From positions 11,769 through 75,768 of the forward strand of contig JAAXWR010000001.1 of the NCBI GenBank assembly GCA_013334825.1: a DNA stretch of 64,000 nucleotides, written 5' to 3'. Shown here piece after piece: positions 8,027 through 55,607 of the stretch. The notes under the pieces are model-generated. The model did not search any database. It saw only the letters and a list, made by a program, of their open reading frames with translations, and was not told where the DNA came from. This stretch comes from Candidatus Yonathbacteria bacterium (GTDB lineage Bacteria > Patescibacteriota > Minisyncoccia > Phycocordibacterales > JACNGX01). A program made the position numbers and the translations under genes. Each line of letters opens with the position of its first letter. Position 1 is the first letter of the stretch.

Positions 8027-8095
8027 ATATTCGTATATTCGTACACATTCGTTATTCGTAACCGTTCTTGAAACTTGAAACTTGAAACTCGTCCA
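8027..8095 (+). repeat. module A of dispersed intergenic element (ATTCGTA heptamer array + CTTGAAACT repeats)
   Basis: 'tattcgtatattcgtacacattcgttattcgtaaccgttcttgaaacttgaaacttgaaactcg'. The same module is at 9582, 10055, 24071, 29079, 30172, 32731, 34008, 34288 and 38800. Confidence 0.8.
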
Positions 8096-9584: not shown

Positions 9585-9630
9585 TGTTTACGAATAACGA
9601 ATGTTTACGAATATACGAATAATATTTCTT
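9582..9630 (-). repeat. module A, inverted copy (overlaps metG stop)
   Basis: 'gtttacgaataacgaatgtttacgaatatacgaataat' is the reverse complement of the ATTCGTA array. Confidence 0.7.
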
Positions 9631-9645
9631 AATATAAAAGTATAA

Positions 9646-10038
9646 ATGAAAAATCTTATAAAAAAAGAAATTCTCTATCCAGAGCTTAGTTATATTATTA
9701 TGGGCTGTTTATTTAATGTTCATAATGAGATTGGGTCAGGACACAAAGAGAGAATCTACGAGAGGGCGGTTGCTGAAGCTTTTATAGAGAGAGGGCTCTC
9801 TTTTAAGGAACAAGTATACGTCCCTGTTATTTTTCATGATAAGTATGTGGGTAAATATTTTCTCGATTTTCTGGTCGATGGGAAAATTGTTGTTGAATTA
9901 AAAGCGGGCGATCAATTTCTGAAGAAAGATACAGATCAGATATTGAGATATTTGCAGATACATAATATTTCATTAGGTATTCTTGCGCGTTTTACATCTC
10001 GTGGAGTAATTGCAAAAAGGATAATACACATAAAATAA
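9646..10038 (+). CDS. GxxExxY family protein (PD-(D/E)XK nuclease-like)
   Basis: 130 aa. 'SYIIMGCLFNVHNEIGSGHKERIYERAVAEAF...VELKA' fits the GxxExxY architecture, with a variant G-x-x-E motif (GHKERIY). Confidence 0.65.
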   Translation: MKNLIKKEILYPELSYIIMGCLFNVHNEIGSGHKERIYERAVAEAFIERGLSFKEQVYVPVIFHDKYVGKYFLDFLVDGKIVVELKAGDQFLKKDTDQILRYLQIHNISLGILARFTSRGVIAKRIIHIK

Positions 10039-10054
10039 TTTTTTATTTTGTAGA

Positions 10055-10101
10055 GGTAACATAGGTAATTCGTATATTCGTAAACATTCGTTATTCGTAT
10101 G
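10055..10101 (+). repeat. module A copy, supplies the tatD start codon
   Basis: 'ggtaattcgtatattcgtaaacattcgttattcgtATGaaat'. Confidence 0.7.
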
Positions 10102-22501: not shown

Positions 22502-22972
22502 ATGTACATCAATAAAGTCTTTTTGTATGGAAATCTTACTCGTCAACCGGAACTACGTGTTTCGCCATCGGGTTCAAAAGTATGTTCATTTAGTATTGCG
22601 ACAAATCGTCGTTACAAAGATCAAACGGGTAACTGGAATGAAGCAAGCGAATACCATAGTTTGGTTGCCTTCGGAAGAAGTGCTGAACTCATCGCTCAAT
22701 ATCTGACTACAGGGAGCAGTGCGTTTATCGAAGGACGATTGCAGACGCGTAGTTGGGAAGGTCCTGATGGTAAAAAGAATTTTCGTACAGAAGTTGTTGT
22801 TGAACAAGTGCAATTTGGTCCTCGCCGTACGGGAGAAGGACAGCAGGGGGGTGGGTATCGTAAAGATGCTGGCTCCGCACAAAACGATAGCGGACAACCG
22901 ATGGCACACGAAGAACTTGATACTATCGAATACCCAACAGAAGATATTAATCCTGACGATATTCCATTTTAA
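22502..22972 (+). CDS. ssb: single-stranded DNA-binding protein
   Basis: 'VFLYGNLTRQPELRVSPSGSKVCSFSIATNRRYKD' is an OB fold. Gly/Gln-rich linker. Canonical acidic tail '...PDDIPF'. Confidence 0.9.
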   Translation: MYINKVFLYGNLTRQPELRVSPSGSKVCSFSIATNRRYKDQTGNWNEASEYHSLVAFGRSAELIAQYLTTGSSAFIEGRLQTRSWEGPDGKKNFRTEVVVEQVQFGPRRTGEGQQGGGYRKDAGSAQNDSGQPMAHEELDTIEYPTEDINPDDIPF

Positions 22973-22985
22973 TTAGTAAATCAGT

Positions 22986-23375
22986 ATGATAGGAAATCAG
23001 GAGATAAGTAAGAAAGATAAAGAAAAGGTGTGCTCATATCGCTCTTTGATTGTATGGCAAAAAGGTTTCGAGGTATCTTTAGTTGTGTATCGCCTGACGA
23101 AGACATTTCCTGATGACGAGCGATATGGTCTCGTATCGCAAATGAGAAGAAGTGCAGTTTCTATTCCGTCGAATATTGCAGAAGGATACGCGCGAGGATC
23201 AAAAGCATCATTTCACCAATTTCTGAGAATCGCATACGGTTCAGCTGCTGAGCTTGAGACGCAATTATTATTAGCAAAAGAATTGAAATACCATAAAGAA
23301 ACAGACATTGAAGAATTGTTGATTGAGGTTATGAAGATGATTAACGCAATTCTTTCAAAAGGAAAATATACATGA
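22986..23375 (+). CDS. four-helix-bundle protein (TIGR02436 / 23S rRNA IVS-protein family, Avd-like)
   Basis: 'SLIVWQKGFEVSLVVYRLTKTFPDDERYGLVSQMRRSAVSIPSNIAEGYARGSKASFHQFLRIAYGSAAELETQLLLAKEL' is diagnostic. Inserted between ssb and rpsR. Confidence 0.85.
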   Translation: MIGNQEISKKDKEKVCSYRSLIVWQKGFEVSLVVYRLTKTFPDDERYGLVSQMRRSAVSIPSNIAEGYARGSKASFHQFLRIAYGSAAELETQLLLAKELKYHKETDIEELLIEVMKMINAILSKGKYT

Positions 23376-23416
23376 GTTATGTTTAGAGCCCGAGATATCT
23401 TCATAGTAATCTCATC

Positions 23417-23492
23417 ATATACTAACCTCCTAATCTCCTAGTTTACTAACTTCCTAACGTACTAACCTCCTAACTTACTAATCTTCTAACTT
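23417..23492 (+). repeat. degenerate tandem repeat of a 13-mer (ACTAACCTCCTAA-like), about 6 units
   Basis: 'tactaacctcctaatctcctagtttactaacttcctaacgtactaacctcctaacttactaatcttctaacttcctatcc'. Related to the AGGAGATTA motifs flanking the other four-helix-bundle copies. Confidence 0.7.
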
Positions 23493-23499
23493 CCTATCC

Positions 23500-23697
23500 A
23501 TGCAATGCTACTTTACCGCAAATAATATTAAATACATCGATTATAAAGATGTAGAGACGCTCAAGAAATTTGTAAATCAACATGGGCGTATTCAAAATAG
23601 TCGTTATTCGGGTGTTTCGGCGAAGCATCAACGACAACTTGCAACGGCAATCAAGCGCGCTCGTTACATGGGACTTCTTGCATACGTTTCTCAATAA
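23500..23697 (+). CDS. rpsR: 30S ribosomal protein S18
   Basis: '[50 protein letters not shown]' is canonical S18. Confidence 0.9.
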
Positions 23698-23712
23698 GAT
23701 ACAAAAGAAAAC

Positions 23713-23743
23713 AAAAACACGGACAGAGAGTCCGTGTTTTTGT
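23713..23743 (+). terminator. rho-independent terminator after rpsR
   Basis: AAAAACACGGAC-AGAGAG-TCCGTGTTTTTGTTTT. Confidence 0.7.
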
Positions 23744-23905
23744 TTTATGTTGTTTCATCAGTTGTTTTTTGGAACATAACTATGTTACAAAAGAGTTGAA
23801 AAACCAATACTCAGTCTCTTTTTTCGGGCGCGGACACGCACACTTCGTGTAACGGAGACGCTGCGGGAGAACTACGAATTCAGTAAAGTCTGTTTTTTAA
23901 ATTAT

Positions 23906-24110
23906 TCCGTCTGTCACCCTCAACCCTCCCGTCCGTCATCCTAAACCCTCTCGTCTGTCATCCTGAACTTTTACCTTGTCGAAGGAAGGTGATTCAATAT
24001 CTTGCCGTTGCAAGCCATCGAAACATTAGGTTAAACCTAGCGGAATACCGCTAGGTTTAACCTAATGTTTTTATTCGTACATTTGTGCATATTCGTTATT
24101 CGTAACCGTG
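23906..24110 (+). repeat. composite intergenic element copy 1 (modules B + C + A)
   Basis: B: 'gtcatcctgaacttttaccttgtcgaaggaaggtgattca', with three 21-bp direct repeats before it. C: the palindrome 'ttaggttaaacctagcggaataccgctaggtttaacctaa'. A: the ATTCGTA array. Confidence 0.8.
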
Positions 24111-25409
24111 TTATCTCTTTGCCCACTCTTCTTCTTGTCGCACAAGTAAATGAGAAGCTTGTTTTGGGTGTGCAAGAAGTGCTTTGACGATACGTTCCAT
24201 ACGGACACCTTGTGATCCTTTGACAAAAACAGTTGCCCCGTCAGGAATAAGATTTGATAGTTGTGTTGTCGCTTCTTGTGCGTCAGCAAATATGTGCATA
24301 TGTGCATGGTCTACACCTGCTTCCTGGGCGCCTTGTGCGAACAGCTTTGCATTGTCTCCAACAAAAATAAGTATATCGGCAGAGATGGCAGCGTCTTTTC
24401 CGGCGTCTTTATGTGCGGATTCCGTCATGTCTCCGAGCTCGCGCATGTCTCCCAAGATTGCAACTTTGATACCTGCGCTTGTGATATCGCGAAGTGTAGA
24501 AAGACCTGCGGCAACGGCGAGAGGGGACGCATTGTATGTGTCATCAATAAGACAGATGTTGCGTATGCCCTCAAGAAGATGTAATCGTCCTGGGGTAGGA
24601 CTGATATGGGAGAGACGCATAGCAGCGTCTTGAGGGGAAATACCTGCGGATACCCCAGCTGCAAAGGCGGCAAGCGCGGTATATGCGTGGTGCGCGCCTA
24701 TGGTGTGCGAAAGAGTAACGGGGTACATGTCGTCTTTGGTAATGAGTGAAAAAGCAAGACCAGACGGTATATTGTTTTCATACACAATATGTATGTTTTC
24801 TGCGCATACAGTATTCTCTGGATGTGTGCCATAGAGAATGACTGTCTTGTTGGAAAGCGTTTTCGCAAGAGGGGCAATACGTGTATCATCTCCGTTTAAA
24901 ATAGCTGTTCCCTCCAAGCGTAACGCATCAAGGAGAGATGCTTTCTCATGAAGGACAGCATCAACAGAAGGAAAAAACTCAACATGTACAGGAATGTCGC
25001 CGACGCGCGTGAGTATCGCGATATCAAGAGATATCCCCGCGAGTGAACGCGCGATATCCCCCGGATGATCAGCGCCGACTTCAAGGATAAGCCATGCGGG
25101 ATAGGGGGCACGAGAAATGACACGCAAGGCGCCTCTATAGAGGGTGAGCATCCACGCACGTGGGCTATTCCATCCTGTAGGCAAATCAAGAATGGTCAAA
25201 GGAACACCAAATTCACTGTTGAAACTTTTTTTGTTTTTTCGCACCGTATACGATTCTTTCATAATGTCATACAAGGCATCTTTCACGGATGTTTTTCCTA
25301 CACTTCCTGTAACGGCGATAATACGCGGACGATGTTTTTTGATAACGAGACGCGCCTCAAATGAAAGTATACTGATCACGATTTGTTTAATGAGTGTGCG
25401 AAGAGACAT
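24111..25409 (-). CDS. murF: UDP-N-acetylmuramoyl-tripeptide--D-alanyl-D-alanine ligase
   Basis: 'IIAVTGSVGKTS', 'DDTYNASP' and 'GDMRELG' are Mur ligase motifs in the MurF arrangement. Confidence 0.8.
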   Translation of the reverse strand: MSLRTLIKQIVISILSFEARLVIKKHRPRIIAVTGSVGKTSVKDALYDIMKESYTVRKNKKSFNSEFGVPLTILDLPTGWNSPRAWMLTLYRGALRVISRAPYPAWLILEVGADHPGDIARSLAGISLDIAILTRVGDIPVHVEFFPSVDAVLHEKASLLDALRLEGTAILNGDDTRIAPLAKTLSNKTVILYGTHPENTVCAENIHIVYENNIPSGLAFSLITKDDMYPVTLSHTIGAHHAYTALAAFAAGVSAGISPQDAAMRLSHISPTPGRLHLLEGIRNICLIDDTYNASPLAVAAGLSTLRDITSAGIKVAILGDMRELGDMTESAHKDAGKDAAISADILIFVGDNAKLFAQGAQEAGVDHAHMHIFADAQEATTQLSNLIPDGATVFVKGSQGVRMERIVKALLAHPKQASHLLVRQEEEWAKR

Positions 25410-25411
25410 AA

Positions 25412-25933
25412 TTACGCGTGATGAGAATGAGTAATGGGGGAGAGTAGTGTCGCGACAATAGCAACCAAAACAAAGCGTATCGAAGAAAGAAAGAGTATGG
25501 CGTACGGTATCATGCCAATGCGAGAGTCAAGCGTGAATGAGTCGGGAAGAAAAAGAAAAATGATTGATTCAACGACAAATGAGGTGAGCGCAATAATGAT
25601 GAGTGGACGATCAAGTCCGCGAGGTAAACGAAATCGTGTTCGTGTACACGAGCACATGTTATTGCTCAAGGAGAGAAGAAGGATAAACAGTATACCAATA
25701 TGGAGTGTCTGCGCGGTCATACCAAGCATGATATATGCGATGCCCGCAGAAAATATCATACGTCCTCCCACAGGGAAACTTTTCAAGACTTCTTTGCCAA
25801 ATGTTGTAGGAAGCCATGCAAAAAACGCTTTTGGGTCATATGCGCGCTCTTTCCATACGGTAGCAAAAATGACACTTTCATACAGCGCGGAAATACCGTA
25901 AAGCATAATAATCACCAAAAGAAGCATGTCCAT
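25412..25933 (-). CDS. hypothetical polytopic membrane protein
   Basis: 173 aa with 4-5 predicted TM segments. Couples directly to the murF start. Confidence 0.4.
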   Translation of the reverse strand: MDMLLLVIIMLYGISALYESVIFATVWKERAYDPKAFFAWLPTTFGKEVLKSFPVGGRMIFSAGIAYIMLGMTAQTLHIGILFILLLSLSNNMCSCTRTRFRLPRGLDRPLIIIALTSFVVESIIFLFLPDSFTLDSRIGMIPYAILFLSSIRFVLVAIVATLLSPITHSHHA

Positions 25934-25995
25934 AGTGCCCAGTATAGCAAGTTTTTTCTCCTCAGGAAACGTAACATCTGTAATAAAAAATCGTC

Positions 25996-26083
25996 TATAC
26001 CAAGGTTAAACCTAATCTATACCAACATTAAGAGTTGGTATAAGAGTCGGCATTTTATACCAAGGTTTAACCTTGGGAGCATA
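25996..26083. repeat. REP-like palindrome pair (REP1 'TACCAAGGTTTAACCTTGG' + REP2 'ATACCAACATTAAGAGTTGGTAT')
   Basis: Seen directly. Same families as at 29004, 38689, 39468, 43677 and 44945-45172. Confidence 0.75.
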
Positions 26084-26266
26084 ATATTTCCTTGTTCCTG
26101 TCAAGTTTTGTATGATACAAATGTTTAACTTCAGTGTTTCTATTGTTTTATGAGTCCGCGTTCCATAAAAGGTTAGGTTGAAAGTAATATTTCTTTTTTG
26201 ATAGTTTGTGTTAAATGAACTATCTCACAGTGGCTGTGTGGAATTGAATTTCAAAATAGATTAAAA

Positions 26267-26290
26267 ATCAGGGGGTATACTCCCCCCTGA
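26267..26290 (-). terminator. rho-independent terminator for minus-strand gene
   Basis: TCAGGGGG-TATAC-TCCCCCCTGA, with a T-run on the minus strand (TTTTTAA). Confidence 0.6.
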
Positions 26291-26301
26291 TATGAAACGT
26301 G

Positions 26302-26688
26302 TTATTGTTGAAAAGTTTCTACAATTTTTTCGAGAAAATTACATCGGAAATCTTTGTCGATAATCGTCACTCCTCTTTCTGAGGGTGAGGGAGCGCCTGT
26401 CAAAACGATGACTGAGGTGTTTTGACACATATGTTTTACCTCAATTGCCGTCTCGAGTTCACCTCTGGTAAGAAAAATCACCCCGCTATACTGCTCGTAG
26501 TCATCCGCTGACTGAGGACGCTCGGTGATAACTGTAACAGAAAATTCATTATCAAGATGTTCTTTGATAATCTCTGCCTGCTGGTTATAACACTGAGCAT
26601 CAGAAGGGTCTCTTCTGTCCATGAATCCCCAATCACCAAAATTGCAAATGAGGATGTTGCGCTGTACAGGTTTGTCTGCGTTTTCCAT
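26302..26688 (-). CDS. hypothetical protein (alternating hydrophobic strands and helices, suggestive of a flavodoxin-like fold)
   Basis: 128 aa. No motif confidently recognised. Confidence 0.35.
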   Translation of the reverse strand: MENADKPVQRNILICNFGDWGFMDRRDPSDAQCYNQQAEIIKEHLDNEFSVTVITERPQSADDYEQYSGVIFLTRGELETAIEVKHMCQNTSVIVLTGAPSPSERGVTIIDKDFRCNFLEKIVETFQQ

Positions 26689-26807
26689 AACGTCCTTTTC
26701 CTTTGTTTAATTTTTGATATTTTTGACGAAAAAACTTTATCATATAAAATACATCCCTGTCTGTCTTTTGTCAAGCACTCCGTCCGTGATATAAACTAAA
26801 AACTCAC

Positions 26808-27386
26808 CTACGCTCGTTCCACGTAACTCTTGGTCGTCGTATTGATGCGAATAACGTCGCCTTGTGCGATAAACATCGGTACGTTGATTGTAGCACCTGT
26901 CTCAACAGTTACTTCTTGCGTTGCGTTTTGCGCAGTGTTCCCACGCACCGCAGGCGTTGCTTCTGTTACTTTCAGGTCCACCTTGATTGGGGGATTGATA
27001 CCAATAATGCTTGCATCATCATCGCGACCAAACAACAGCGCTTCAAGTTCGCTGTTTTCTTTGACGAAGAGTAGTTTATCGGCAACGGTTTCAGAGGGAA
27101 GGGTAAAACGGTTTTTCGCGTCATCCTTTTTGTGGAACCAATATTCACCTTTACGCGGATCTTTGTAGAGATACACAATAGTTCCTTTTTCGATAATTGC
27201 TTCATCAAATGAATCGGACTGGTGAAATGTCTTATCCACTGTCTTACCCGAAATCATATTGCGCACCTTTGTTTGATTGGTCGCTTTTTGACGATTCTTC
27301 TTGGCGGTTTGGGAAAAAACCACTTCATAAGGCTGCCCGTCCATGACGAAGTAGGTGCCCACGGTGAGTTCATTGTAGTCTAACAT
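26808..27386 (-). CDS. efp: elongation factor P
   Basis: 'GTYFVMDGQPYEVV...KTVDKTF' and the three-domain length are typical of EF-P. Confidence 0.85.
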   Translation of the reverse strand: MLDYNELTVGTYFVMDGQPYEVVFSQTAKKNRQKATNQTKVRNMISGKTVDKTFHQSDSFDEAIIEKGTIVYLYKDPRKGEYWFHKKDDAKNRFTLPSETVADKLLFVKENSELEALLFGRDDDASIIGINPPIKVDLKVTEATPAVRGNTAQNATQEVTVETGATINVPMFIAQGDVIRINTTTKSYVERA

Positions 27387-27490
27387 TGTACAATAAAAAG
27401 ATTATGAATAAAGAAATGATTTAAAGAGAATTATACTCGCTTTGTAAGAGGAGATTAAAAATTAGGAGATTAAAAAAGCGAAAAACACCC

Positions 27491-27856
27491 TCAATGGTCT
27501 GAATATAACATAGTATTTAACATTTTCATAACTTCCTGAAGAAGGGTATCGGTTTCTTGATAAGCAGACAAAGGATAATCAAATATTTCCTTAGCGAGTG
27601 CGATTTGTGTTTCAGGTTCTGCACCAGAGGCATAAGCGATACGAAGGAAGTGATGAAATTCTTTTTTTGAGCCCCGAGCATATCCCTCTGCTATATTTGA
27701 AGGAATAGAGACAGACGAACGACGCATTTGGCTTGTGAGACCGAATCTTTCATCTGGAGGAAAAGACTGTGACAATTTGTATATTGATACGCTGAGTCGA
27801 AAACCTTTTTTCCAAGCGGTGATGTTTTGATAGGAACCTTTTATTGTGTCACTCAT
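27491..27856 (-). CDS. four-helix-bundle protein (TIGR02436 family), copy 2
   Basis: 'ITAWKKGFRLSVSIYKLSQSFPPDERFGLTSQMRRSSVSIPSNIAEGYARGSKKEFHHFLRIAYASGAE'. Flanked by AGGAGATTA motifs at 27440-27470 and 27862-27890. Confidence 0.85.
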   Translation of the reverse strand: MSDTIKGSYQNITAWKKGFRLSVSIYKLSQSFPPDERFGLTSQMRRSSVSIPSNIAEGYARGSKKEFHHFLRIAYASGAEPETQIALAKEIFDYPLSAYQETDTLLQEVMKMLNTMLYSDH

Positions 27857-27888
27857 AGAAAGGATATTAATCTCCTAATCTCCTTTAA

Positions 27889-28932
27889 CTATTTCTCTTT
27901 CTGCTTCTCATCAAGCGCTTTTCCAATTGCTTTTGCAATCTCATTACCAATTTTTTTGTTTTCTTTCAAAAACTCACGCGCCGCGTCATATCCGCGACCA
28001 AGTTTTTCTTCACCATACGCATATGATGAACCAGATTTATCGACGATACCAAATTGCTCTCCCAACATGAGCATCTCGCCTTCACGAGAAATCCCTTCGC
28101 CATAAACAATGTCAAACTCCGTCTGACGGAACGGGGCTGCGACTTTATTTTTGACAATCTTTACACGTGTCCGTGACCCAATCACTTCATCACCCTTTTT
28201 TACTTGCGCGATGCGACGGATATCCACGCGTACCGAAGTATAGAATTTGAGTGCTTTGCCACCTGGTGTTGTCTCAGGATTGCCAAACATCACACCGATT
28301 TGCATGCGGATTTGATTGATGAAGATGACGACCGTTTTTGTCTTGTCTACGATGGCGGTCAATTTGCGAAGCGCTTGACTCATGAGACGAGCTTGTTTGC
28401 CGACATGTTGTGCGCCCATGTCTCCTTCGATTTCATCACGTGGGGTGAGTGCCGCGACAGAGTCAATGACAATCACATCCATTTTACCTGAACGTACCAA
28501 ACTCTCGGCAATTTCAAGCGCTTGTTCACCGTTGTCTGGTTGGGCGATGAGAAGCTCATTTGTTTTGACTCCCAATTTGCGTGCGTAATCAGGGTCCATG
28601 GCATGTTCCGCATCAATAAATGCACAGAGGCCACCTTTCTTTTGTGCTTCGGCGACAACATGAAGTGCGAGCGTTGTTTTTCCAGATGATTCTGGACCAA
28701 AAATTTCAATGATACGACCACGAGGGAATCCACCCACACCGAGCGCATGGTCAATACCGATGGATCCAGAAGGAATAACGTCCACGTCCACGCGTGGTTT
28801 GTCACCGAGTTTCATGATGGCACCTTCGCCAAATTTCGTCTGAATCGCTTTGATCGTATCAGCAATATCGGTGTTGCCGTCACGTGAGGGGATCTCTGGA
28901 CGGGCTACTTTTGCTTTTTTGGGTGCAGGCAT
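27889..28932 (-). CDS. recA: recombinase RecA
   Basis: '[36 protein letters not shown]' with Walker A, L1/L2 loops and C-terminal tail. Confidence 0.95.
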
Positions 28933-29003
28933 AGTATTGAGAAAATAAATGAGTATCTGTGTATTATATCACGAGATATCCGAATGCGAATACAGCACAA
29001 GTC

Positions 29004-29190
29004 ATACCAGGGTTTAACCTTGGGAGCATATGCTATACCACCACTAAGAGTTGGTATAAAACGTAGGGTGCTGGATATACGTACGTATTCGTTATTCGTA
29101 AGCATTCTTGAAACTCGTCCGCCCCGTCCTTTCTTAAGAAAGGACGGGGCGGACGCGCGTGCTCCGCGTAGCGGAAACATCGCGGGAAAC
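29004..29190 (+). repeat. composite intergenic element copy 2 (REP1 + REP2 + module A + 40-bp GC palindrome + hairpin)
   Basis: Includes the perfect palindrome CGTCCGCCCCGTCCTTTCTT|AAGAAAGGACGGGGCGGACG at 29116..29155. A second copy of that palindrome is at 34875..34912. Confidence 0.8.
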
Positions 29191-29202
29191 TTGTCTTCTG
29201 CG

Positions 29203-29694
29203 TCAGTTCCGCGTTTCTTCTGTGTCGTTTTCTATTTCTTGCGTCTCAACATCCGAATCGTCGCCCAACGTCTCTTCCGTGTCAGTTTGGTGACTTTCAG
29301 CTCTGTCTTCTGTCTCTCGCAGCTCGACACTCGACACTCGCGATTCATCCATTTTTCCTATTATCTCTCGTGTCTCCGCGCATTCATTACCAAAACGGTC
29401 TCGCGCGTAGAGTGTAATGATATTAAGCCCAGGGGAGAGGATGTATGTCTCGTTAAAGTGTCCCTGCTCATCAATGAAAATCGGCCGACCGTTCATAGCG
29501 ATAAACGTCGCATTTGTCGCGACACCAAATATATGAATCATTGGTTCCTCAAACGTCGCCCCATTTCCGGGGCCTTCGAGCGCGATACGTGGACCAAGCA
29601 TGAGTGCCCATGCCTGATGTACGACATACACAACTAAGAGAATGCCCAAAAGCACCCACCCCACGCGTATAAATATGTCTTTTAAGGTTACCAT
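29203..29694 (-). CDS. hypothetical membrane-anchored protein with acidic C-terminus
   Basis: N-terminal TM helix, then a beta-rich domain, then a D/E/T-rich tail. Confidence 0.45.
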   Translation of the reverse strand: MVTLKDIFIRVGWVLLGILLVVYVVHQAWALMLGPRIALEGPGNGATFEEPMIHIFGVATNATFIAMNGRPIFIDEQGHFNETYILSPGLNIITLYARDRFGNECAETREIIGKMDESRVSSVELRETEDRAESHQTDTEETLGDDSDVETQEIENDTEETRN

Positions 29695-29741
29695 GAAGAA
29701 AGTGTTCAGTTATCAGTTTCAAGCATTGCCTATTCGCTATT

Positions 29742-30126
29742 TTAATGAGAAGAAAGAGATTGAATAAGTGCATTTAACATTTTTTCAATCTCTGTTATTT
29801 TTGAAATAATTTGCTCATAGTCACTATCTTTTATAAAAGATAATTCTTTTGCGAGGATAATTTCAGTTTTCAATTCAGCAGCTGAGCCATATGCGATACG
29901 AAGAAACTGTGTAAAGTCTTTTTTTTGTACCGCGACACTGTCCCTCGGCAATATTGGAAGAAATTGAAATTGCTGCCCGTTTTATTTGAGAGATCAGTCC
30001 GAATCTTTCATCAAGAGGAAAATATTTTGTTACTGCGTAAACTTCTTTTGCGAGCTGAATGCCTTTTTGCCATACCAAGAGATCTTGATATGAGATACTG
30101 CGTTTATTGTTTAGATACTCAGGCAT
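29742..30126 (-). pseudogene. four-helix-bundle protein (TIGR02436 family), copy 3, frameshifted
   Basis: Two overlapping ORFs in different frames (29875..30126 and 29742..29951) together cover one family member: 'LLVWQKGIQLAKEVYAVTKYFPLDERFGLISQIKRAAISISSNIAEGQCRG' plus 'FTQFLRIAYGSAAELKTEIILAKEL'. Confidence 0.65.
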
Positions 30127-30171
30127 ATATGTTATGGAGTTTTGTTAACCATCTTTTTGGATATAGGGTGT

Positions 30172-30234
30172 GGGGCAAGCGTACGTATTCGTTATTCGTA
30201 AGCATTCTTGAAACTGACAACTTGAAACTCGTTC
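30172..30234 (+). repeat. module A copy at the 3' end of ftsK
   Basis: 'ggggcaagcgtacgtattcgttattcgtaagcattcttgaaactgacaacttgaaactcg'. Confidence 0.8.
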
Positions 30235-32549
30235 TACTCCCCATACCCTTCAGACTCAACACCCTTTCCCTCCAGCACTTCTCGTGGCTTTGCGCCTTCT
30301 CCCGGTCCCACGACACCACGTTCTTCAAGCATATCCATGAGACGTGCTGCGCGCGCGTATCCAACCTTCAGTTTGCGTTGCAAAAATGATGTGGATGCTT
30401 TTCCTGCTTCAATGACCGTTTGTCGCGCTTCTTCATACATGTCGTCATCGTCATCATCACCAAAGCCACCACCTGCGCCACCACGTTCATCAAGCGACCC
30501 ACTCATGATATCAGCGAGTGAGGATAAGGGCGATACGCCCGAAGGGTCAGAAATGGTAATGTCGTCAAAGTCTCCGCCAGAATACTCTTTGCGCAAGTAT
30601 GACACAATACGTTTGATTTCGTTTTCTGTGACGAATGCCGATTGAATACGCTGTGGTTGAGACATGTCACTTGAAAGATAGAGCATATCACCTGCGCCAA
30701 GAAGTTTTTCTGCGCCACCAGTATCAAGAATGGTACGTGAATCAATCTGCGATGAAACTTGAAGCGCGATACGTCCCGGAACGTTTGCCTTGATAAGACC
30801 GGTGATAACATTGACCGACGGACGCTGTGTGGAGAGAATAAGATGAATACCCACGGCGCGACTCATCTGCGCGAGACGAACAATTGCCGATTCCAATTCA
30901 CGCGGATACGTGGTCATGATGTCAGCGAGCTCATCAATAACGACAACAATATAGGGCATTGCTTCGGGAAGAGCGGCGCCATCGGGTGCGCCGTCATTCT
31001 GAGCAGCTTTATACGCGGGGGCAACAATATTTTCATGGTATGACGCGATATCTCGAACAGACTCTGATTCAAGAATGTCATAGCGACGATCCATTTCCTT
31101 GGCTGCCCATTTGAGAGCGAGGATAGCTTTTTTGGGTTCGGTAATGACAGGCGTCAGTAAGTGGGGGATGCCATTGTACATCGTGAGTTCGACGCGCTTT
31201 GGGTCAATCATGATAAAACGCATGCGCTCTGGACCATTCCTATATATAAGAGAAGCGAGAATGGCATGAATAGTTACCGACTTTCCCGAGCCAGTGGTTC
31301 CCGCGATAAGCATGTGGGGGAGTTTTGCGAGGTTTGCAAAGAACGATTGTCCCGAGATGCCACGTCCAAGAGCAAAGAGGAGAGGCTTTTCCGAACCGAC
31401 AAATTCAGGCGCGGAAAGAAGTTTTGCCAAGCCGATAGTACTGCGTGCCGAGTTAGGAACTTCAATACCGACAAGAGACTTGCCGGGAATAGGTGCTTCG
31501 ATACGTACAGGATGTGCCGCCAGAGCGAGACCGAGGTCGTTTTGGAGTCCGACAATGCGCGAGAGCTTGACCCCTTCGGCAGGTTTCAAAGCGTAACGAG
31601 TAACAGTTGGACCAACAGAAATTTCATCCATCTCAACGGTGATACCAAAGTTTTGCAGTGTGCGTTTGATGATGTTGGCGTTTGCCTTGATGTCTCCAAC
31701 TTCTGGTTTACCCTTGTCTACCGAAAGGAGAGAGACGGGTGGAGGAAGATACGTGCGATTCTGAAGAGGGTATGCACTCGTTGCCATTTTAGGAAGTTCT
31801 TCTTCGTCTTTTTTCTTTTTTCCAAAAAATCCTTGTGTGGGAGATGGTTCTTCCGGTGGAGTGTGCTCATCAGCAACTGGCGTAGGGGGGACGGGAGTGA
31901 GGGTATCTTCTTCTGTATCAGGGACAGTGATGAATGTGCCATCCTCTTCGTCCGACTTGGTACGGTTGCGAAAACGAAGAAGCCATGAGAGGGGAGGTCG
32001 TTCGGGTGAGAGCGGTTTATCAAAGATGAGGAGAAGAGAGATGATGATAAATGCAATGAGAAAGACCGATGCTGCGACCGCGTCAAAAAGTTTTACGAGA
32101 GGAGAGGCGAGCACTTTTCCAAGCCATCCACCGCCGGTGTTTCCTGAAAGAATGGAAGTGAGTCCAAGCGCAGAGACGAAGAAGAGAACTGCTCCCAGAG
32201 TTTTTGGCAGTGCAATGTGTTCGCGGGCATCTTCTGCGTCAAAGAGAGATGCTCCAACGAGGAAAAAGATGATAGGGAGGAACACATACCCTAACCCAAA
32301 GAATGCATCAAGTTCATCGAATGTAAATGTTCCCGCCATGCCTGCGATACCGAGTGCTGCGAGAATAAAAAAAACGCCGAGCACAAAAAAAAGAATACCG
32401 AGCATGCTACGTTTTGTCTCGCGTTTGATATTGAGACGAGGAGTTTTTTCTCCATTTGTATCAGATGATGTTCCGCGTTTTTTGACCGGAACGGGCGCCG
32501 GTTTCTTTTTTGGGGATTGTTTTTTAGAATCGTTTTTTGCCATATACAC
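30234..32549 (-). CDS. ftsK: DNA translocase FtsK/SpoIIIE
   Basis: N-terminal TM helices. 'LIAGTTGSGKSVTIHAILASLIYRNGPERMRFIMIDPKRVEL' is the FtsK motor. C-terminal gamma-like wHTH. Confidence 0.9.
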   Translation of the reverse strand: MYMAKNDSKKQSPKKKPAPVPVKKRGTSSDTNGEKTPRLNIKRETKRSMLGILFFVLGVFFILAALGIAGMAGTFTFDELDAFFGLGYVFLPIIFFLVGASLFDAEDAREHIALPKTLGAVLFFVSALGLTSILSGNTGGGWLGKVLASPLVKLFDAVAASVFLIAFIIISLLLIFDKPLSPERPPLSWLLRFRNRTKSDEEDGTFITVPDTEEDTLTPVPPTPVADEHTPPEEPSPTQGFFGKKKKDEEELPKMATSAYPLQNRTYLPPPVSLLSVDKGKPEVGDIKANANIIKRTLQNFGITVEMDEISVGPTVTRYALKPAEGVKLSRIVGLQNDLGLALAAHPVRIEAPIPGKSLVGIEVPNSARSTIGLAKLLSAPEFVGSEKPLLFALGRGISGQSFFANLAKLPHMLIAGTTGSGKSVTIHAILASLIYRNGPERMRFIMIDPKRVELTMYNGIPHLLTPVITEPKKAILALKWAAKEMDRRYDILESESVRDIASYHENIVAPAYKAAQNDGAPDGAALPEAMPYIVVVIDELADIMTTYPRELESAIVRLAQMSRAVGIHLILSTQRPSVNVITGLIKANVPGRIALQVSSQIDSRTILDTGGAEKLLGAGDMLYLSSDMSQPQRIQSAFVTENEIKRIVSYLRKEYSGGDFDDITISDPSGVSPLSSLADIMSGSLDERGGAGGGFGDDDDDDMYEEARQTVIEAGKASTSFLQRKLKVGYARAARLMDMLEERGVVGPGEGAKPREVLEGKGVESEGYGE

Positions 32550-32599: not shown

Positions 32600-32785
32600 T
32601 TCGCCCGTCATCCCGAGCTCCACGCCTTGCCGAAGCCTTGGCGAAGGAAGGTAATGTAAGATTTAGAGTTGCAAGTCGCCAAAACGTTAGGTTAAACCTA
32701 GCGGCGCTCCGCTAGGTTTAACCTAACGTTTTTATTCGTATATTCGTTCGTAAGCATTCTTGAAACTGACAACTTGAAACTCATC
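32600..32785 (+). repeat. composite intergenic element copy 3 (B + C + A)
   Basis: 'cgtcatcccgagctccacgccttgccgaagccttggcgaaggaagg', then 'ttaggttaaacctagcggcgctccgctaggtttaacctaa', then the ATTCGTA array. Confidence 0.8.
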
Positions 32786-32860
32786 CACACTCATTCCCCT
32801 TGCCCCTCTCGATTCACTGTGTTCCACTCCATGCAATGCTCTTGAATCAATTGAGAACGC

Positions 32861-33894: not shown

Positions 33895-34380
33895 ACTCGT
33901 TCGTCATCCATTCCAGTCTGTCATCCCGGGCTCCGTGCCTTGCCGAAGCCTTGGCGAAGGAAGGTGACACGGGATCCAGAGTCGTCAGTTTCATCCATCT
34001 TAGTTTAGTTGTATTCGTACATTCGTACGTATTCGTTATTCGTAACCATTCTTGAAACTCGTCATGGAACTCGTTTCATTGACTTTATACCATAAAAAAA
34101 CTATAATAAAAGGAGATATTTTGTTGTTTAAAAACCACATCATTTTCGTGTCATAACAAACTCGTTTCATCATTCGTCGAGTCGTCCTTGAGAGTCTGTC
34201 GTTCTGAACTTTTTACCTTCCCGAAGCCTTGGCGAGGGAAGGTGATTCAGGATCCAGAGTCATCAGTTTCATCTATCGTAGTCTAGTCGTATTCGTACAT
34301 TCGTACGTATTCGTTATTCGTAAGCATTCTTGAAACTTGAAACTTGAAACTGACAACTGACAACTCGTCTTCATTGCACA
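33895..34380 (+). repeat. tandem array: B-A, then B-A composite elements (copies 4 and 5)
   Basis: B copies at about 33895-33990 and 34190-34285. A copies at 34008-34075 and 34288-34375 (the latter with CTTGAAACT x3 and GACAACT x2). Confidence 0.8.
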
Positions 34381-34774
34381 AGTGCGATGAAGAATGTAGT
34401 TATCCACACGAAAATCTTTGCGGTATAACGAACGGCAAAATATAATGTATACAGATACACATTGTTCCATTTTCTCTCGACGGATGCTCTGCATCCGTGT
34501 GTGGTCGTAGGGGACGATGTGTATGCACGGGATGCTCGTTGACAACAGAACAAACGGCGCTACCAAAGAGTAACAGCGACTGTCATCCGATTGCGCAAGC
34601 AATCGTGTTGTCATCGTCATCCGCGCCGACTCGTCTTACGACGGTCGCCGTGTATGTCATTATTATCAAACTCTTTTATTATCAGCTGTAACTGATATCG
34701 GTAAGTCGCGCCACCGCATAAGCGAAGGACAAAGAAAAGACCAACACTTAATGTTGGTCTCAAAGAAGTCTCAG

Positions 34775-34970
34775 CGAAGTCTGTCATCCTGAACTTTTTA
34801 CCTTGCCGAAGCCTTGGCGAAGGAAGGTGATTCAGGATCCACGGAGTCGTCCGTCGTTTCGTTTCTTGAAACTTGTCCGTCCCGCCCTTTCTTAAGAAAG
34901 GGCGGGACGGACCCGCGCGCTCTGCGTAGCAGAGACGTCGCGGGAAACTGACAACTTGAAACTCGTCAAG
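34775..34970 (+). repeat. composite element copy 6 (B + 38-bp GC palindrome + hairpin + partial A)
   Basis: 'gtcatcctgaactttttaccttgccgaagccttggcgaaggaaggtgattcaggatcc', then 'gtccgtcccgccctttcttaagaaagggcgggacggac', then 'gaaactgacaacttgaaactcg'. Confidence 0.8.
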
Positions 34971-38517: not shown

Positions 38518-38606
38518 TCCGTTTGTTCATGATACGAAACGCGCAAGCGTAACGTAACAGAGCAATATTCCTTGCCCTAAAAAGCAGGAAGGGGAGCAAT
38601 CCCCAA

Positions 38607-38635
38607 CAAAAACCCCCGCAAGGGGGTTTTTGTTA
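38607..38635 (+). terminator. rho-independent terminator after S-layer-like gene
   Basis: AAAAACCCCC-GCAA-GGGGGTTTTTGTT. Confidence 0.8.
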
Positions 38636-38639
38636 TGTC

Positions 38640-38895
38640 CCAATCTGCCATACCAAAGCCCACACCAACTCTTCCAACAGTCTGTTTCCCGTACCAAGGT
38701 TAAACCTTGGTAGCGTCGTCCGTCATCCTGAAAAAAGGAGTGTCATCCTGAACTCGATTCAGGATCCACGAAGTCGTCAGTTTCATCTATCGTAGTCTAG
38801 TCGTATTCGTACATTCCCCAGCACCACGTAGGGCGCGGGGCAGGCGTACGTATTCGTTATTCGTTTCCCGTATCAAGGTTAAACTTTGGTAAAAA
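38640..38895 (+). repeat. composite element copy 7 (REP2-like + REP1 + B + A + REP1-like)
   Basis: 'ccgtaccaaggttaaaccttggtagcg' at 38689, B module from 38715, A module from 38800. Confidence 0.75.
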
Positions 38896-39413: not shown

Positions 39414-39427
39414 AGAGTATGAAATAC

Positions 39428-39452
39428 CAAACCCCCGTCCGCGGGGGTTTTT
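39428..39452 (+). terminator. rho-independent terminator
   Basis: AAACCCCC-GTCCGC-GGGGGTTTTTGTT. Shares the 'gggggtttttgttatgtcccaa' tail with 38620-38645. Confidence 0.8.
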
Positions 39453-39640
39453 GTTATGTCCCAACCCGCAATACCAACATTTCTGTACCAACTCTTAATG
39501 TTGGTACAGAGTTGGTATCCTATACCAAGGTTAAACCTCGGGAGTATCTTCTGTCATCCTGAACTTTTTACCTTGCTGAAGCCTTGGCGAAGGAAGGTGA
39601 TTCAGGATCTATGGAGCCGTCCGTCATCTGTTCGTCTCTC
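39452..39640 (+). repeat. composite element copy 8 (REP2 + REP1 + B)
   Basis: 'gtaccaactcttaatgttggtac' palindrome, then 'tataccaaggttaaacctcggg', then 'gtcatcctgaactttttaccttgctgaagccttggcgaaggaaggtgattcaggatc'. Confidence 0.8.
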
Positions 39641-43676: not shown

Positions 43677-43702
43677 GTACCAAGGTTAAACCTTGGTAGC
43701 GT
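43677..43702. repeat. REP1 palindrome CGTACCAAGGTTAAACCTTGGTAGCG
   Basis: Seen directly, between paralogs 1 and 2. Confidence 0.8.
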
Positions 43703-44950: not shown

Positions 44951-45175
44951 GTACCAAGGTTTTCCGTACCAAGGTTAAACCTTGGTAGCGCCTCACCCAT
45001 CTTTGTATGTCAAGTATGTTTACGCAGGTTAAACCTTGGTATAAATACCAAGGTTTAACCTGCGTAAACTATCGCGAATCATTTTCGTCTTCTGTACCAA
45101 GGTTAAACCTCGGTGACGGATTTTTGTCTGTCAACATGTTGAATGTTTATACCAAGGTTTAACCTTGGTATAATG
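44945..45175. repeat. cluster of 5 REP1 palindromes immediately upstream of the RAYT gene
   Basis: Copies at about 44950, 44965, 45018-45071 (nested 52-bp perfect palindrome GTTTACGCAGGTTAAACCTTGGTATAAATACCAAGGTTTAACCTGCGTAAAC), 45093 and 45147. The last carries a TATAAT -10 eight bp before the ATG. Confidence 0.85.
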
Positions 45176-45180
45176 CGTGT

Positions 45181-45900
45181 ATGTTAAGAGATGCTCCCTT
45201 TGTTGAAGGAGAAATATACCATCTATATACGCGTGGTGTTGAAAAAAGAGAGATATTTCTTTCTGATTTTGATCGTAAGAGATTTCAATTATCATTATTT
45301 CTTTCAAATAACAATCATGCAGGGATGCAGATAAGAAATACAATAAAGATTTTTGAAGATAATGGCGCCACTAGTTGGGGAAAGATTTATCAAGAATACG
45401 AAAAAGGGGAGCCATTTGTGGATATTCTCGCCTATGTTCTTATGCCTAATCATTTTCACATACTCGTAAAAGAGCATATACCTGAGGGTGGTGGAATTTC
45501 AAAGTTTATGCAGAAAATCATGAATAGTCATACAGGATATTTTAATAAAGCTAATGAGCGTACAGGTGCATTATTTGAAGGGACGTTCAAGAGTAAACAT
45601 GTAAATGACGAGGCATATTTTCGTTGGTTGTTTTCATATATTCATCTCAATCCACTCAAGTTAATTGAACCCGGATGGCGGGAAGGTATTATTCGCGATA
45701 TGCCCCGCGCGATCCAATTTTTGAATAATTACGCGTGGTCAAGTTTCCCCGACTACGCCGGAGTGGAACGCCCCGAAGGTGTTATTCTTACCAAAGATGC
45801 TCTGCCAGAATATGTTACATTAGTAAAAGACGTTGAAGGTCTTATTGCTGAACGTGCGACACATATACCAAGTGATACAAGGCGTATGCGTTTTTCATGA
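45181..45900 (+). CDS. REP-associated tyrosine transposase (RAYT; IS200/IS605 Y1 HUH transposase-like)
   Basis: 'ILAYVLMPNHFHILVKEHIPEGGGISKFMQKI' holds the HUH motif (HFH). 'YFRWLFSYIHLNPLKLIEPGW...YAWSSFPDY' holds the catalytic Tyr motif. This closely parallels E. coli YafM 'LPEHMHCIWTLPEGDDDFS...YIYINPVKHGW...WPFSSF'. Confidence 0.85.
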   Translation: MLRDAPFVEGEIYHLYTRGVEKREIFLSDFDRKRFQLSLFLSNNNHAGMQIRNTIKIFEDNGATSWGKIYQEYEKGEPFVDILAYVLMPNHFHILVKEHIPEGGGISKFMQKIMNSHTGYFNKANERTGALFEGTFKSKHVNDEAYFRWLFSYIHLNPLKLIEPGWREGIIRDMPRAIQFLNNYAWSSFPDYAGVERPEGVILTKDALPEYVTLVKDVEGLIAERATHIPSDTRRMRFS

Positions 45901-46023
45901 TCATATTTTTTCATTGGTATATGTTTTTGTTAGATGGGCTATCAAGTTATGTTTAGTGAGATATTATCTTTCGATTGAAATGAAGAATGGTATGAATTTG
46001 TTGTAAGTTGGTAGCGCGGCGGG

Positions 46024-46060
46024 CATGCGTGCCCGCCGCGCCGCTTTGTTATGGTCAGAA
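46024..46060 (+). terminator. rho-independent terminator after RAYT
   Basis: GCGCGGCGGGC-ATGCGT-GCCCGCCGCGC, followed by TTTGTT. Confidence 0.65.
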
Positions 46061-52467: not shown

Positions 52468-53401
52468 ATGTGTATGAACATTTCACGTATCGATAAAACA
52501 TCACGAAAGTGGTAGTAACGCAAATTAATATAGCGGTATATTATTTTTGAATAGTAACATATTGGATATTGAAAATTGTTTGTGATTTGGTATTTTGCAT
52601 TTGTCATTTCAATCACGAGTGATAGAGAAGATTTGATAAGAGAAAAAGAATTTTTTTTTACACACCTCTTTTCTTGTAACATGATAGTCATGTTCTCTAT
52701 AGTTTCGTGTATGTCTATGTTCGTTCTACATGCATGTTGCATGGTTTCCGCATGGTCTTTGAGAGTCATATCGATTTAAAAATTAACACTGTATATACGC
52801 TATCTTTGAAGTTTCGTCTATAACCGATGACCTCTTACCTATTTCCTAAACAAAACGCTTGACATTATTTTTCATTCGATTATACTAGCCGGTACGTATG
52901 GTAATGAACTTCACACGCAGGCGGCAATAAGAACACCGACTCGGGGTTCCTATTGTCCGCCCTCGCGGCGGTTTTTCATTATCAGACGGGCTCGTTGTCA
53001 ACTGAAGAAGATATCAAGAGTCTTAATCGTCTAGGGGAAATGTGAAGCGCTTCGTGCGTCGACATTTCCCGAACAAAGGAATGTATCCTTTGCAACACGC
53101 CAAGCGCGACGCATTGCTTCGCGCTTGGCGTAAAAAGAAACGCGGTTAAGGGCATACGGTGGATGCCTAGACTCTCAGAGGCGATGAAGGACGTGGCATG
53201 GCTGCGATAATCTTCGGCGAGGTGCCCAGCAACCTACGACCCGGAGGTCTCCGAATGGGGAAACCCTATCCGGTAAACCCGGATAGTCTCGGTATTATAT
53301 CGAGACGCAAACCAGGGGAAGTGAAACATCTCAGTACCCTGAGGAAAAGAAACCAATAGGAATTCCCTAAGTAGCGGCGAGCGAAACGGGAAGAGCCCAA
53401 A

Positions 53402-53726: not shown

Positions 53727-53941
53727 GGTCGTAAGGCGGTAATGTCGCTTTTATAGTGAGAGATACGTGTGAAGGTTAATGGAACCGACTGGGAAGTCGG
53801 ACCCTAGAGGGTAATAGTCCCGTACATGAAAACCAGATCCGATCTTTGTTACCGTTCTTGAGTACTCCAAGACACGAATAGCTTGGGGGAATTCGCCGGA
53901 ACTAACCGGCAAGGCTAAATACTCTGAGAGATCGATAGTGA

Positions 53942-53975
<34 letters not shown>

Positions 53976-54026
53976 GGAGAGGGGAGTGAAATAGATCTGA
54001 AACCGTATGCCTACAAGGAGTCGGAG

Positions 54027-55556: not shown

Positions 55557-55607
<51 letters not shown>

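Follow-up and report, generated by a model that had tools for sequence, protein, structure and literature searches.

The DNA studied here, called the window, is a stretch of 64,000 nucleotides (nt) from contig JAAXWR010000001.1 of a Candidatus Yonathbacteria bacterium (Patescibacteria), and the subject is a short intergenic element that recurs along it, first noticed at positions 23906-24110. Most genes of the window lie on the plus strand; the only minus-strand block, 24111-32549, holds a Mur ligase gene, efp, recA, ftsK and two genes for the four-helix-bundle protein 23S_rRNA_IVP (IVP). Cumulative GC skew rises over the whole window, which we therefore treat as a single replichore. An earlier note had described the element as a unit of 170-200 bp assembled from four modules, B, C, A and a GC palindrome, and had read a strand-specific function from its orientation bias. 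What recurs, we find, is no single "element" but a mosaic made up of small hairpin repeats of several kinds, with modules lying beside and nested inside one another in the intergenic DNA. The parts resolve into known kinds: a repetitive extragenic palindrome (REP) of the CGTC type, a gene like those for REP-associated tyrosine transposases (RAYTs) with its own hairpins, cassettes resembling intervening sequences (IVSs) together with their arms, and terminator-like palindromes.

Self-comparison of the window returned the composite copies where they had been placed, at 23906, 29004, 30172, 32600, 33895, 34190, 34775, 38640 and 39452, and reading through 23700-24400 bore out the layout reported for the first of them: two incomplete GTCAYCC units, a B hairpin, palindrome C, then the ATTCGTA-rich module A. 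All four modules exist, but they are joined by others (R1 and R2 hairpins, a G-rich module E, a module 'mid', a second GC hairpin, an A-tail of CTTGAAA and CAACTGA heptamers, and tandem 5′ half-sites of B) and are nested, and do not make up one 170-200 bp unit. The modules keep a colinear order where present (R, B, mid or C, E, A, tail, GC palindrome), and any can be absent. Nesting takes several forms: the loop of B holds a further hairpin that we call B-core, A is interrupted by E at 38816-38845, and the A-tail is interrupted, at 34875 and again at 29117, by the GC palindrome with the second hairpin. Three features of the set are odd, namely the core hairpin shared across phyla, the tandem half-sites and the systematic nesting. 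Similar modular intergenic mosaics are the bacterial interspersed mosaic elements (BIMEs) of E. coli and the Neisseria intergenic mosaic elements (NIMEs). Both join palindromic units to further short conserved motifs, and the order varies; the mosaic described here differs in its module sequences, in including arms of small-gene cassettes, and in its strong single-strand orientation.

The 5′ arm of B (YGTCATCCYGRRC, at most one mismatch) matches ten times in the window, nine of them on the plus strand, where 0.79 matches are expected by chance. Seven B hairpins, all on the plus strand, start at 23956, 32606, 33919, 34197, 34782, 38741 and 39552. Five carry the full core, CCTT(G/C)C(C/T)GAAGCCTTGGCGA(A/G)GGAAGG; the copy at 23956 has lost 11 nt of it and that at 38741 has none. 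The composites built around these hairpins also lie on the plus strand. In the first (23912-24005, from pattern search and module coordinates) two tandem half-sites, each a tag plus 5′ arm at a period of ~22 nt, lead into a TGTC-tagged B with the shortened core CCTTGTCGAAGG and a decayed 3′ arm. The composite at 32606-32787 consists of a CGTC-tagged B with full core and decayed 3′ arm, a linker, C (32687-32726) with its T-run, a short A (32734-32752) and an A-tail (32753-32787). At 33902-34063 lie a half-site, B (33919-33980), mid, A (34012-34045) and A-tail; the composite at 34197-34365 (B 34197-34258, A 34290-34323, A-tail 34324-34365; fold z -4.1) is its near-tandem duplicate, the two copies, 33903-34059 and 34181-34337, being offset by 278 nt with 84-91% identity. 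Within 34782-34968 a B with core (34782-34844) precedes an A-tail split by the 38-nt GC palindrome (34875-34912) and the second GC hairpin (34913-34944). The composite at 38692-38891 comprises an R1 hairpin, a half-site, the core-less B (38741-38771), mid, the A split by E and an R1-like hairpin (38871-38891), and that at 39486-39614 comprises an R2 hairpin (39486-39506), an R1 hairpin (39523-39543) and a B with core (39552-39614). Upstream of these last two, terminator hairpins AAACCCCCG..CGGGGGTTTTTG at 38605-38660 and 39426-39481 are each followed by the same ~30-nt sequence, TTGTTATGTCCCAAYCYGC.ATACCAA, which runs into the R/B composite and is an additional repeated module, attached to a terminator.

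Module B fits the described family of CGTC/TGTC-tagged REPs, in a phylum unlisted in the paper that defined it (Di Nocera, De Gregorio & Rocco 2013, PMC3733652). In that paper a CGTC REP carries a tag, CGTC or often TGTC, that stays unpaired; its stem of 8-9 bp opens with A-T pairs, its loop has 4-5 nt and its tail is CCA. The super-family has no dedicated transposase and includes dRS3 of Neisseria and RPE-4 and RPE-6 of Rickettsia. We place B in the family because tag, stem, loop and tail all agree. The tag is TGTC or CGTC in all seven copies and in the half-sites. The core-less copy at 38741 reads TGTC-ATCCTGAA-CTCGA-TTCAGGAT-CCA, with an 8-bp stem whose first pairs are A-T and T-A and with CTCGA as the loop; other loops in the window are enlarged, in five copies by the nested core and at 23956 by the shortened one. 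The CCA tail is present at 33919, 34197, 34782 and 38741, and in L049 and L050 (contigs outside the window carry L numbers; these two are from relatives), with CTA instead at 39552. The L050 stem, ATCTCGGG/CCCGGGAT, differs by a compensatory change, and the features of the family occur together in 38741-38771 and in the L049 and L050 copies. B is further like the family in being multi-copy and intergenic and in forming mosaic arrays as in Neisseria, where mosaic intergenic regions hold these repeats interspersed with others. It differs in its host, since Patescibacteria lies outside the five phyla listed in PMC3733652, and in that its copies are co-oriented singletons, most with a second hairpin nested in the loop and several preceded by tandem half-sites.

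Hairpins of this kind are widespread. The B-outer pattern GTCATCCTGAACNNNNTTCAGGATC matches in at least 120 metagenome stretches and in 41 viral contigs, and behind a match there is often an inverted partner, its stem different yet complementary. The 1.1 Mb of those contigs hold 339 tag-plus-hairpin units, 126 of them with non-query stems against 1-5 in shuffles. Among 347 related hairpins GTC is preceded by T in 186 and by C in 114 (T or C in 300/347), and the loop has 5 nt in 312. Ninety inverted pairs in other contigs (75 with tags outward, 15 with tags facing) compare with 158 singletons. A literature search with the B-core and B-outer strings returned only chance primer matches. We rejected a general link between CGTC-type REPs and heptamer arrays, because in other contigs 1 of 201 matches lay near a period-7 array against a background of 0.65%; an earlier, stricter array detector had found nothing even within the window. 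Tandem 5′ half-sites with a period of ~21-22 nt stand before complete CGTC-type hairpins at 23912-23968, 33902-33918 and 38721-38740 of the window, at 6040-6110 of L050, and in the unrelated metagenome contigs L060, L068, L080, L104 and L143, which suggests repeated one-sided events. Four IMG/VR viral contigs (L186, L189, L193 and L198) with GC skew of magnitude 0.17-0.25 carry 3-10 CGTC-type REP singletons each, all on the C-rich strand; a terminase gene confirms L189 as phage, and REPs of the CGTC family are abundant in some phage genomes.

The B-core hairpin measures 26-27 nt and is made up of a 6-bp stem and a GC stem, with a symmetric GAA/GAA internal loop between them and CUUG as the terminal loop. 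Its 20-mer GAAGCCTTGGCGARGGAAGG has 46 exact matches (loci L001-L046, e.g. L013, L022, L030, L032 and L044) in contigs drawn from one genome per species, where by our own calculation ~2 are expected. A complementary 5′ extension is present at 35 of the 46 loci, most of which fold as the same hairpin; judged by record titles, the 35 come from about eight phyla (Bacteroidota, Patescibacteria, Lentisphaerota/Verrucomicrobiota, Pseudomonadota, Nitrospirota, Omnitrophota, Elusimicrobiota and Hydrogenedentota). Outside the window the B-core is embedded in unrelated local repeats. It lies, for example, inside a ~130-nt multi-copy repeat of a Victivallis metagenome-assembled genome (MAG; 11 loci), between cysD and cysN of an Aureitalea MAG, with ACGAATG heptamers on its flanks, and in a Cytophagales rRNA operon, where it lies in the tRNA-23S spacer. 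Rfam gave no family for the 18 foreign B-core loci searched. The idea that the B-core travels with IVP genes was rejected, as none of the 46 loci has an IVP open reading frame (ORF) within 8 kb.

A RAYT-like gene of the HUH-Y1 type lies at 45181-45900 on the plus strand and was characterised with Pfam, NCBIfam and AlphaFold/Foldseek. Its product (NCBI HGB03_00210, 239 aa), encoded on a 450-kb contig of the Candidatus Yonathbacteria MAG, contains H91-F-H93 and Y153-x3-N157, the latter motif being the signature of class 2 TnpA-Y1 (TnpA-REP) enzymes (PMC6006769). The protein matches Pfam Y1_Tnp and is, by sequence, a distant member of REP_Tyr_transpos. It has more than 1,400 homologs, mostly in Patescibacteria and some named RayT at source, and the residues of both motifs (H91, H93, Y153, N157) are invariant in 39 of them. 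An AlphaFold2 model (pLDDT 93.2) has as its top Foldseek match in the PDB the chain 4ER8_A, the E. coli RAYT on a REP hairpin (E 2.9e-6, target-normalised TM 0.67), ranking above the TnpA proteins of IS608 and ISDra2.

Five R1 hairpins (TACCAAGG-TTWAA-CCTTGGTA) at 44967-45170 on the plus strand, with an inverted doublet at 45022-45066, occupy the 215 nt upstream of this gene, and the last ends 10 nt before the start codon; downstream there is only half an R arm (46008). Ten more R copies are dispersed in the window, for example a partial R1 at 25998, R2 at 26020 and R1b at 26058 (25998-26078, without an assigned strand), and hairpins at 34739-34759 and 43678-43698. Across 15 copies the R stems have 91.9% of cells paired and double changes in five of nine pairs, and none of 500 shuffles reaches the observed score. 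The same arrangement is found in L049, L050 and L214, where a hairpin just before the RAYT start is kept with a differing stem (ACCAACACT/AGTGTTGGT in L049, ACCAAAGCT/... in L050, ATCAAGG/CCTTGAT in L214). From sequence and model, the R1/R2 hairpins and the RAYT-like gene are predicted to form a system like the REPtrons, or REP/REPIN-RAYT systems (Nunvar 2010; Bertels & Rainey 2011, PMC3116915; Messing 2012, PDB 4ER8; Quentin 2018, PMC6006769). The likeness lies in the HUH-Y1 gene with Y-x3-N and a fold nearest that of the E. coli RAYT, in a cluster of cognate hairpins abutting the gene, in dispersed intergenic copies, in hairpin stems that co-vary with lineage, and in a gene syntenic in relatives, consistent with vertical inheritance. 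The differences are that full hairpins stand upstream of the gene only and lack the 5′ GT[AG]G guide, and that the protein, known here from sequence and model, is ~75 aa longer than the E. coli RAYT and falls under the NCBIfam cut-off. At 46008-46045, downstream of the gene, the half R1 arm TTGGTAGCG runs straight into a GC-rich hairpin of 11 bp that has GTAG before its foot; this is either a canonical-looking GTAG REP or simply the terminator of the gene. Similar GCGCGGCGG hairpins occur in L050 (660-695, 1358-1392).

The pattern of module A, ATTCGTTATTCGTA with at most one mismatch, has nine matches in the window against 0.03 expected, eight on the plus strand and one on the minus; a tenth, shortened copy lies at 32734. 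One copy (24072-24105, plus strand) ends 5 nt before the murF stop codon. The isolated A modules that the earlier note placed at 8027, 9582 and 10055 were recovered at 8028, 9588 (minus strand) and 10068, and the first of these, with an A-tail of three CTTGAAA heptamers (8028-8092, plus strand), stands 44 nt upstream of a metG-like gene. A composite without B at 29005-29185, also on the plus strand, comprises R1b, R2, E, A (29080-29100), A-tail, the GC palindrome (29117-29154) and the second hairpin.

Module A, together with its heptamer tail, makes up inverted arms that enclose small-gene cassettes of ~445-530 nt. The sole reversed A copy (9588-9621) and a forward copy (10068-10099) are partner arms of a cassette at 9589-10099 (plus strand) that encloses a gene for a GxxExxY (PDDEXK_3) nuclease at 9646-10038; these arms of 43 nt have 88% complementarity with a perfect 32-nt core, and in a 536-nt transcript they fold as a long terminal stem (z -6.7). 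The IVP3 cassette (29701-30229, minus strand) holds a frameshifted IVP pseudogene between A-tail arms at 29701-29726 and 30204-30229, its right arm also carrying E and A (30161-30200). The IVP2 cassette (27444-27889, minus strand) has an intact IVP gene (27491-27856) between inverted GGAGATTA-type arms, an arm of this type also occurring solo at 1427-1453. The IVP1 cassette (22972-23498, plus strand), with its gene at 22986-23375 and an octamer array at 23404-23499 as its right arm, lies between ssb and rpsR. It interrupts the conserved rpsF-ssb-rpsR operon (22502-23700), just before the 65-aa S18 gene at ~23501-23698, which we identified by eye in the translated sequence. All three IVP cassettes and the GxxExxY cassette have inverted arms, 13-43 nt long, and these make the terminal stem in both cassettes that were folded (GxxExxY and IVP3). 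The IVP gene of L050 likewise has its own inverted arms.

The cassettes are built like the IVSs of 23S rRNA, here outside rRNA. None of the four is inserted in helix 25 or 45 of 23S rRNA; all lie between protein-coding genes, and for this reason we do not class them as rRNA IVSs. The IVS of Coxiella burnetii has a 28-bp terminal stem, an S23p ORF and heptamer repeats, and is excised by RNase III (PMC4990558), and IVP ORFs are known within rRNA insertions of the candidate phyla radiation (CPR; bioRxiv 10.1101/2024.02.27.582315). The cassettes are similar to the Coxiella IVS in size, in the small ORF (PF05635), in a terminal stem of 25-40 bp, in the heptamers beside the ORF, and in that one ORF is decaying in both. 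Besides their location they differ in that one holds a GxxExxY nuclease gene and that the arms are dispersed repeat families (A and A-tail). Another type of intergenic heptamer direct repeat is the short tandemly repeated repetitive (STRR) sequence of cyanobacteria. The short heptamer runs near start codons (CTTGAAA, CAACTGA, ATTCGTA) also resemble the TAACTGA repeats of Beggiatoaceae, Cyanobacteria and Bacteroidetes (MacGregor 2015, PMC4679880), CAACTGA being one base off TAACTGA; a passing remark in that paper has the sampled repeat sets between stop codons of Microcystis on the same strand. The arrays of the window differ in having 2-4 imperfect units and in being tied to cassette stems.

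Module C has arms TTAGGTTAAACCTAGCGG and CCGCTAGGTTTAACCTAA around the loop AATA, followed by TGTTTTT (24026-24071, plus strand). There are two copies, as had been reported, each 40 nt long, at 24026-24065 and 32687-32726, with identical 18-nt arms and differing 4-nt loops. With flanking bases included C folds as a 24-bp hairpin (z -12.3), and together with its T-run it scores as an intrinsic terminator on the plus strand at both sites, which is what it looks like. The GC palindrome, at 29117-29154 and 34875-34912, is perfect as claimed and 38 nt long rather than 40. The copies differ at four positions, which make two compensated pairs, and as both are nevertheless perfect, palindromy itself must have been maintained.

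Syntenic relatives were reached through homologs of the RAYT-like protein, with 70% identity for L049 and 65% for L050; L214 is more distant and also syntenic. L049 and L050 share the flanking genes and have different module sets, and A modules and the B-core are absent from both. At the site orthologous to 34782, L049 has GTCATCCTGAACTTGTTTCAGGATCC, a B without core, and no GC palindrome. None of the modules in the window matched an Rfam family at gathering or relaxed thresholds.

The orientation bias is real. In the window 7/7 B hairpins, 9/10 A modules and 13/14 CTTGAAACT tails are on the plus strand, and both minus-strand exceptions, one A and one tail, are partner arms of cassettes. All nine intergenic regions with solo oriented modules have them on the plus strand (two-sided binomial ~0.004, our own count), and eight of the nine have a plus-strand gene on at least one side. 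It had been stressed that the bias holds even next to minus-strand genes, with murF, recA and ftsK as examples. This stands for the recA composite: 29061-29200, upstream of recA, is the only such region between two minus-strand genes, recA and the gene at 29203-29694. The murF copy has a plus-strand gene on its other side, the copy upstream of ftsK (32600) faces a plus-strand gene at 32861, and that at the 3′ end of ftsK (30172) is the right arm of the IVP3 cassette, so these two genes make weaker examples. The bias is thus genuine but weakly informative. Singletons of the same REP type are co-oriented in other contigs too (10/10 in L189, 5/5 in L186 and 5/5 in L198); in L189 the tag strand is antisense to the only assignable gene, the phage terminase, and replication and transcription are confounded there as well.

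The step from this bias to a strand-specific function, whether a small RNA (sRNA) or a replication-oriented signal, is not warranted, since co-orientation is expected from a mobile element of the REP/RAYT type, the related IS200/IS605 enzymes acting on one strand. REP arrays are reported to be oppositely oriented on opposite replichores in P. fluorescens (Bertels & Rainey 2011, PMC3116915), and the IS200/IS605 relatives of RAYTs work on one DNA strand, the lagging-strand template at the replication fork (PMC6006769). The tag strand of the window is G-rich and would have the sequence of the lagging-strand template, the polarity predicted by the IS608 model. We propose that the hairpin modules spread in the form of single-stranded DNA (ssDNA) hairpins, which a strand-specific HUH-Y1 enzyme would cut and rejoin at the replication fork, with local duplication and gene conversion supplying more copies; the copies would become co-oriented because such chemistry uses a single strand and the whole window belongs to one replichore. 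Once settled, the modules would be transcribed as stable hairpins, C with its T-run may act as a terminator, and the long cassette stems would be likely substrates of RNase III, such RNA effects being by-products and not the reason why the repeats exist.

To this reading, a mosaic of structured repeats formed by strand-specific ssDNA hairpin mobilisation plus local duplication, we give a probability of roughly 0.6. Several observations weigh against it. The RAYT-like gene is flanked by R hairpins and not by B, and no enzyme is linked to B, A, C or the B-core. The best NCBIfam match of the protein, NF047646 REP_Tyr_transpos, scores 43.2 bits against a cut-off of 80, and a sequence search of the PDB gave no match. 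At the 5′ foot of the R hairpins there is (C)GTAC or (T)ATAC in place of the GT[AG]G guide, GTAG occurring only on the 3′ side of R1a (TTGGTAGCG). All B copies of the window are single and on one strand, where the family tends, not strictly, to head-to-head dimers. The tag is on the G-rich strand in the window and on the C-rich strand in the strongly skewed contigs, and no single rule relating tag strand to GC skew holds across taxa. The proposed comparison of orientation with GC skew, made in the window, did put almost all oriented modules on the G-rich strand, but the window is one replichore with mostly plus-strand genes, so causes linked to replication, transcription or duplication are not separable. 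Copies are clustered at 8-10 kb and 24-45 kb and include two near-tandem duplicates, and hence local duplication alone could keep the orientation.

This last possibility, in which local segmental duplication or gene conversion of a few founder composites within a 40-kb neighbourhood produced the co-orientation with neither transposition nor a strand-specific process, accords with the duplicate pair at 278-nt offset, the constant module order across composites, the restriction of copies to 2-10 kb and 24-45 kb with none at 10.1-23.4 kb or 46-64 kb, and the one insertion point shared by all core-bearing B copies of the window, which implies a single founder. The copies nevertheless occupy ~11 separate intergenic regions with unrelated flanks and with conserved housekeeping genes between them, these hairpin families also occur dispersed across unrelated contigs by the hundred, and the core-less B at the orthologous site of L049 means that copies were replaced or converted, not simply inherited; as the whole cause, local duplication seems unlikely to us. 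We are equally doubtful that the modules, and B especially, are a strand-specific functional RNA (an sRNA, or a cis-acting leader or terminator element) read from the plus strand. B does fold better on that strand (z -3.0) than on the minus strand (z -2.3), the stem of copy 34197 is kept by way of two G.T wobbles, which the opposite strand would show as A.C, copy 39552 preserves a G.U pair despite a C-to-U change in its core, C plus TTTTT is terminator-like on the plus strand, every B copy has a plus-strand gene on at least one side, and in other phyla the B-core tends to be sense to the downstream gene (~15 against 5, with crude gene calls). Yet Rfam gave no match even at relaxed thresholds, orthologous sites of close relatives differ by gains and losses of modules, several copies have decayed (23956 and 32606 lost the 3′ arm), and positions relative to genes are mixed (upstream of promoters, after terminators, in convergent and divergent gaps). 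Hairpins of the same type, moreover, are usually found as inverted doublets, and in a phage contig they are antisense to genes; the wobble asymmetry over the 347 hairpins, 11 against 6, is too slight to use.

That the modules serve the replisome or FtsK as polar replication or segregation signals, in the manner of KOPS, Chi or Ter sites, we consider very unlikely. Their orientation follows the G-rich, presumably leading, strand throughout the window, and ftsK is nearby, although as coincidental context only; the elements are too long, few, clustered and variable for such a role, do not occur in large parts of the window or in L214, a syntenic relative that is more distant, and vary in module content even among close relatives. 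A conventional miniature inverted-repeat transposable element (MITE) moved by a DDE transposase would also be short, non-coding, multi-copy and intergenic. The earlier note had already argued against a classical MITE, and we agree: neither terminal inverted repeats nor target-site duplications were seen when the ten A copies were aligned with their flanks and the flanks of B inspected, module boundaries differ between copies, and no DDE transposase was found among the window proteins scanned. The DDE-type MITE was accordingly rejected and hardly retains any probability. Strand-specific hairpin mobilisation with local duplication thus stays our favoured mechanism, and a dedicated sRNA or replication signal is not supported. 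We regard the mosaic as a known phenomenon in a new host, with no new RNA or replication signal. A broader and speculative idea, which we think improbable, is that the B-core, the CGTC-type REPs and the IVS-like cassettes form one class of mobile modules targeting hairpin loops, with the B-core as an undescribed structured module and the GxxExxY nuclease, the four-helix-bundle proteins or a further HUH enzyme as mobilising or maintenance factors; if true, one such class would account for the nesting, the tandem 5′ half-sites and the single-strand orientation.

Other features of the window were noted in passing. It contains 23S and 5S rRNA genes and, apart from them, the start of a 16S gene. 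The 23S gene (53136-57267) is 4.1 kb long compared with the usual ~2.9 kb; two group I introns lie in it, at 55967-56238 and 56671-56929, and there are more insertions with ORFs, of which 53416-53706 corresponds to a GIY-YIG gene called in the Logan contig L047. The 16S gene starts (63758-64000) 6.2 kb downstream of the 5S gene with protein-coding genes between, and so the rRNA operon is unlinked. A near-consensus promoter, TTGACT-17-TATAAT, is at 34079-34107. The ~390-nt stretch at 34380-34770, ~270 nt downstream of it, is ~81% conserved in L049 and partly in L050; a 168-aa ORF is called there in L049, the window has no conserved ORF and no Rfam match, and the stretch may be an unannotated non-coding RNA.

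The findings indicate that a very small Patescibacteria genome can hold dense REP/RAYT-type repeats together with IVS-like cassettes outside rRNA, and they extend the CGTC-tagged REP family to a new phylum and to phage contigs. They also touch on annotation, as the modules break assemblies (Logan contigs stop at modules), and such modules also give rise to spurious ORFs. The nesting, the half-site arrays and the strict co-orientation offer a handle on how orphan CGTC-type REPs move.

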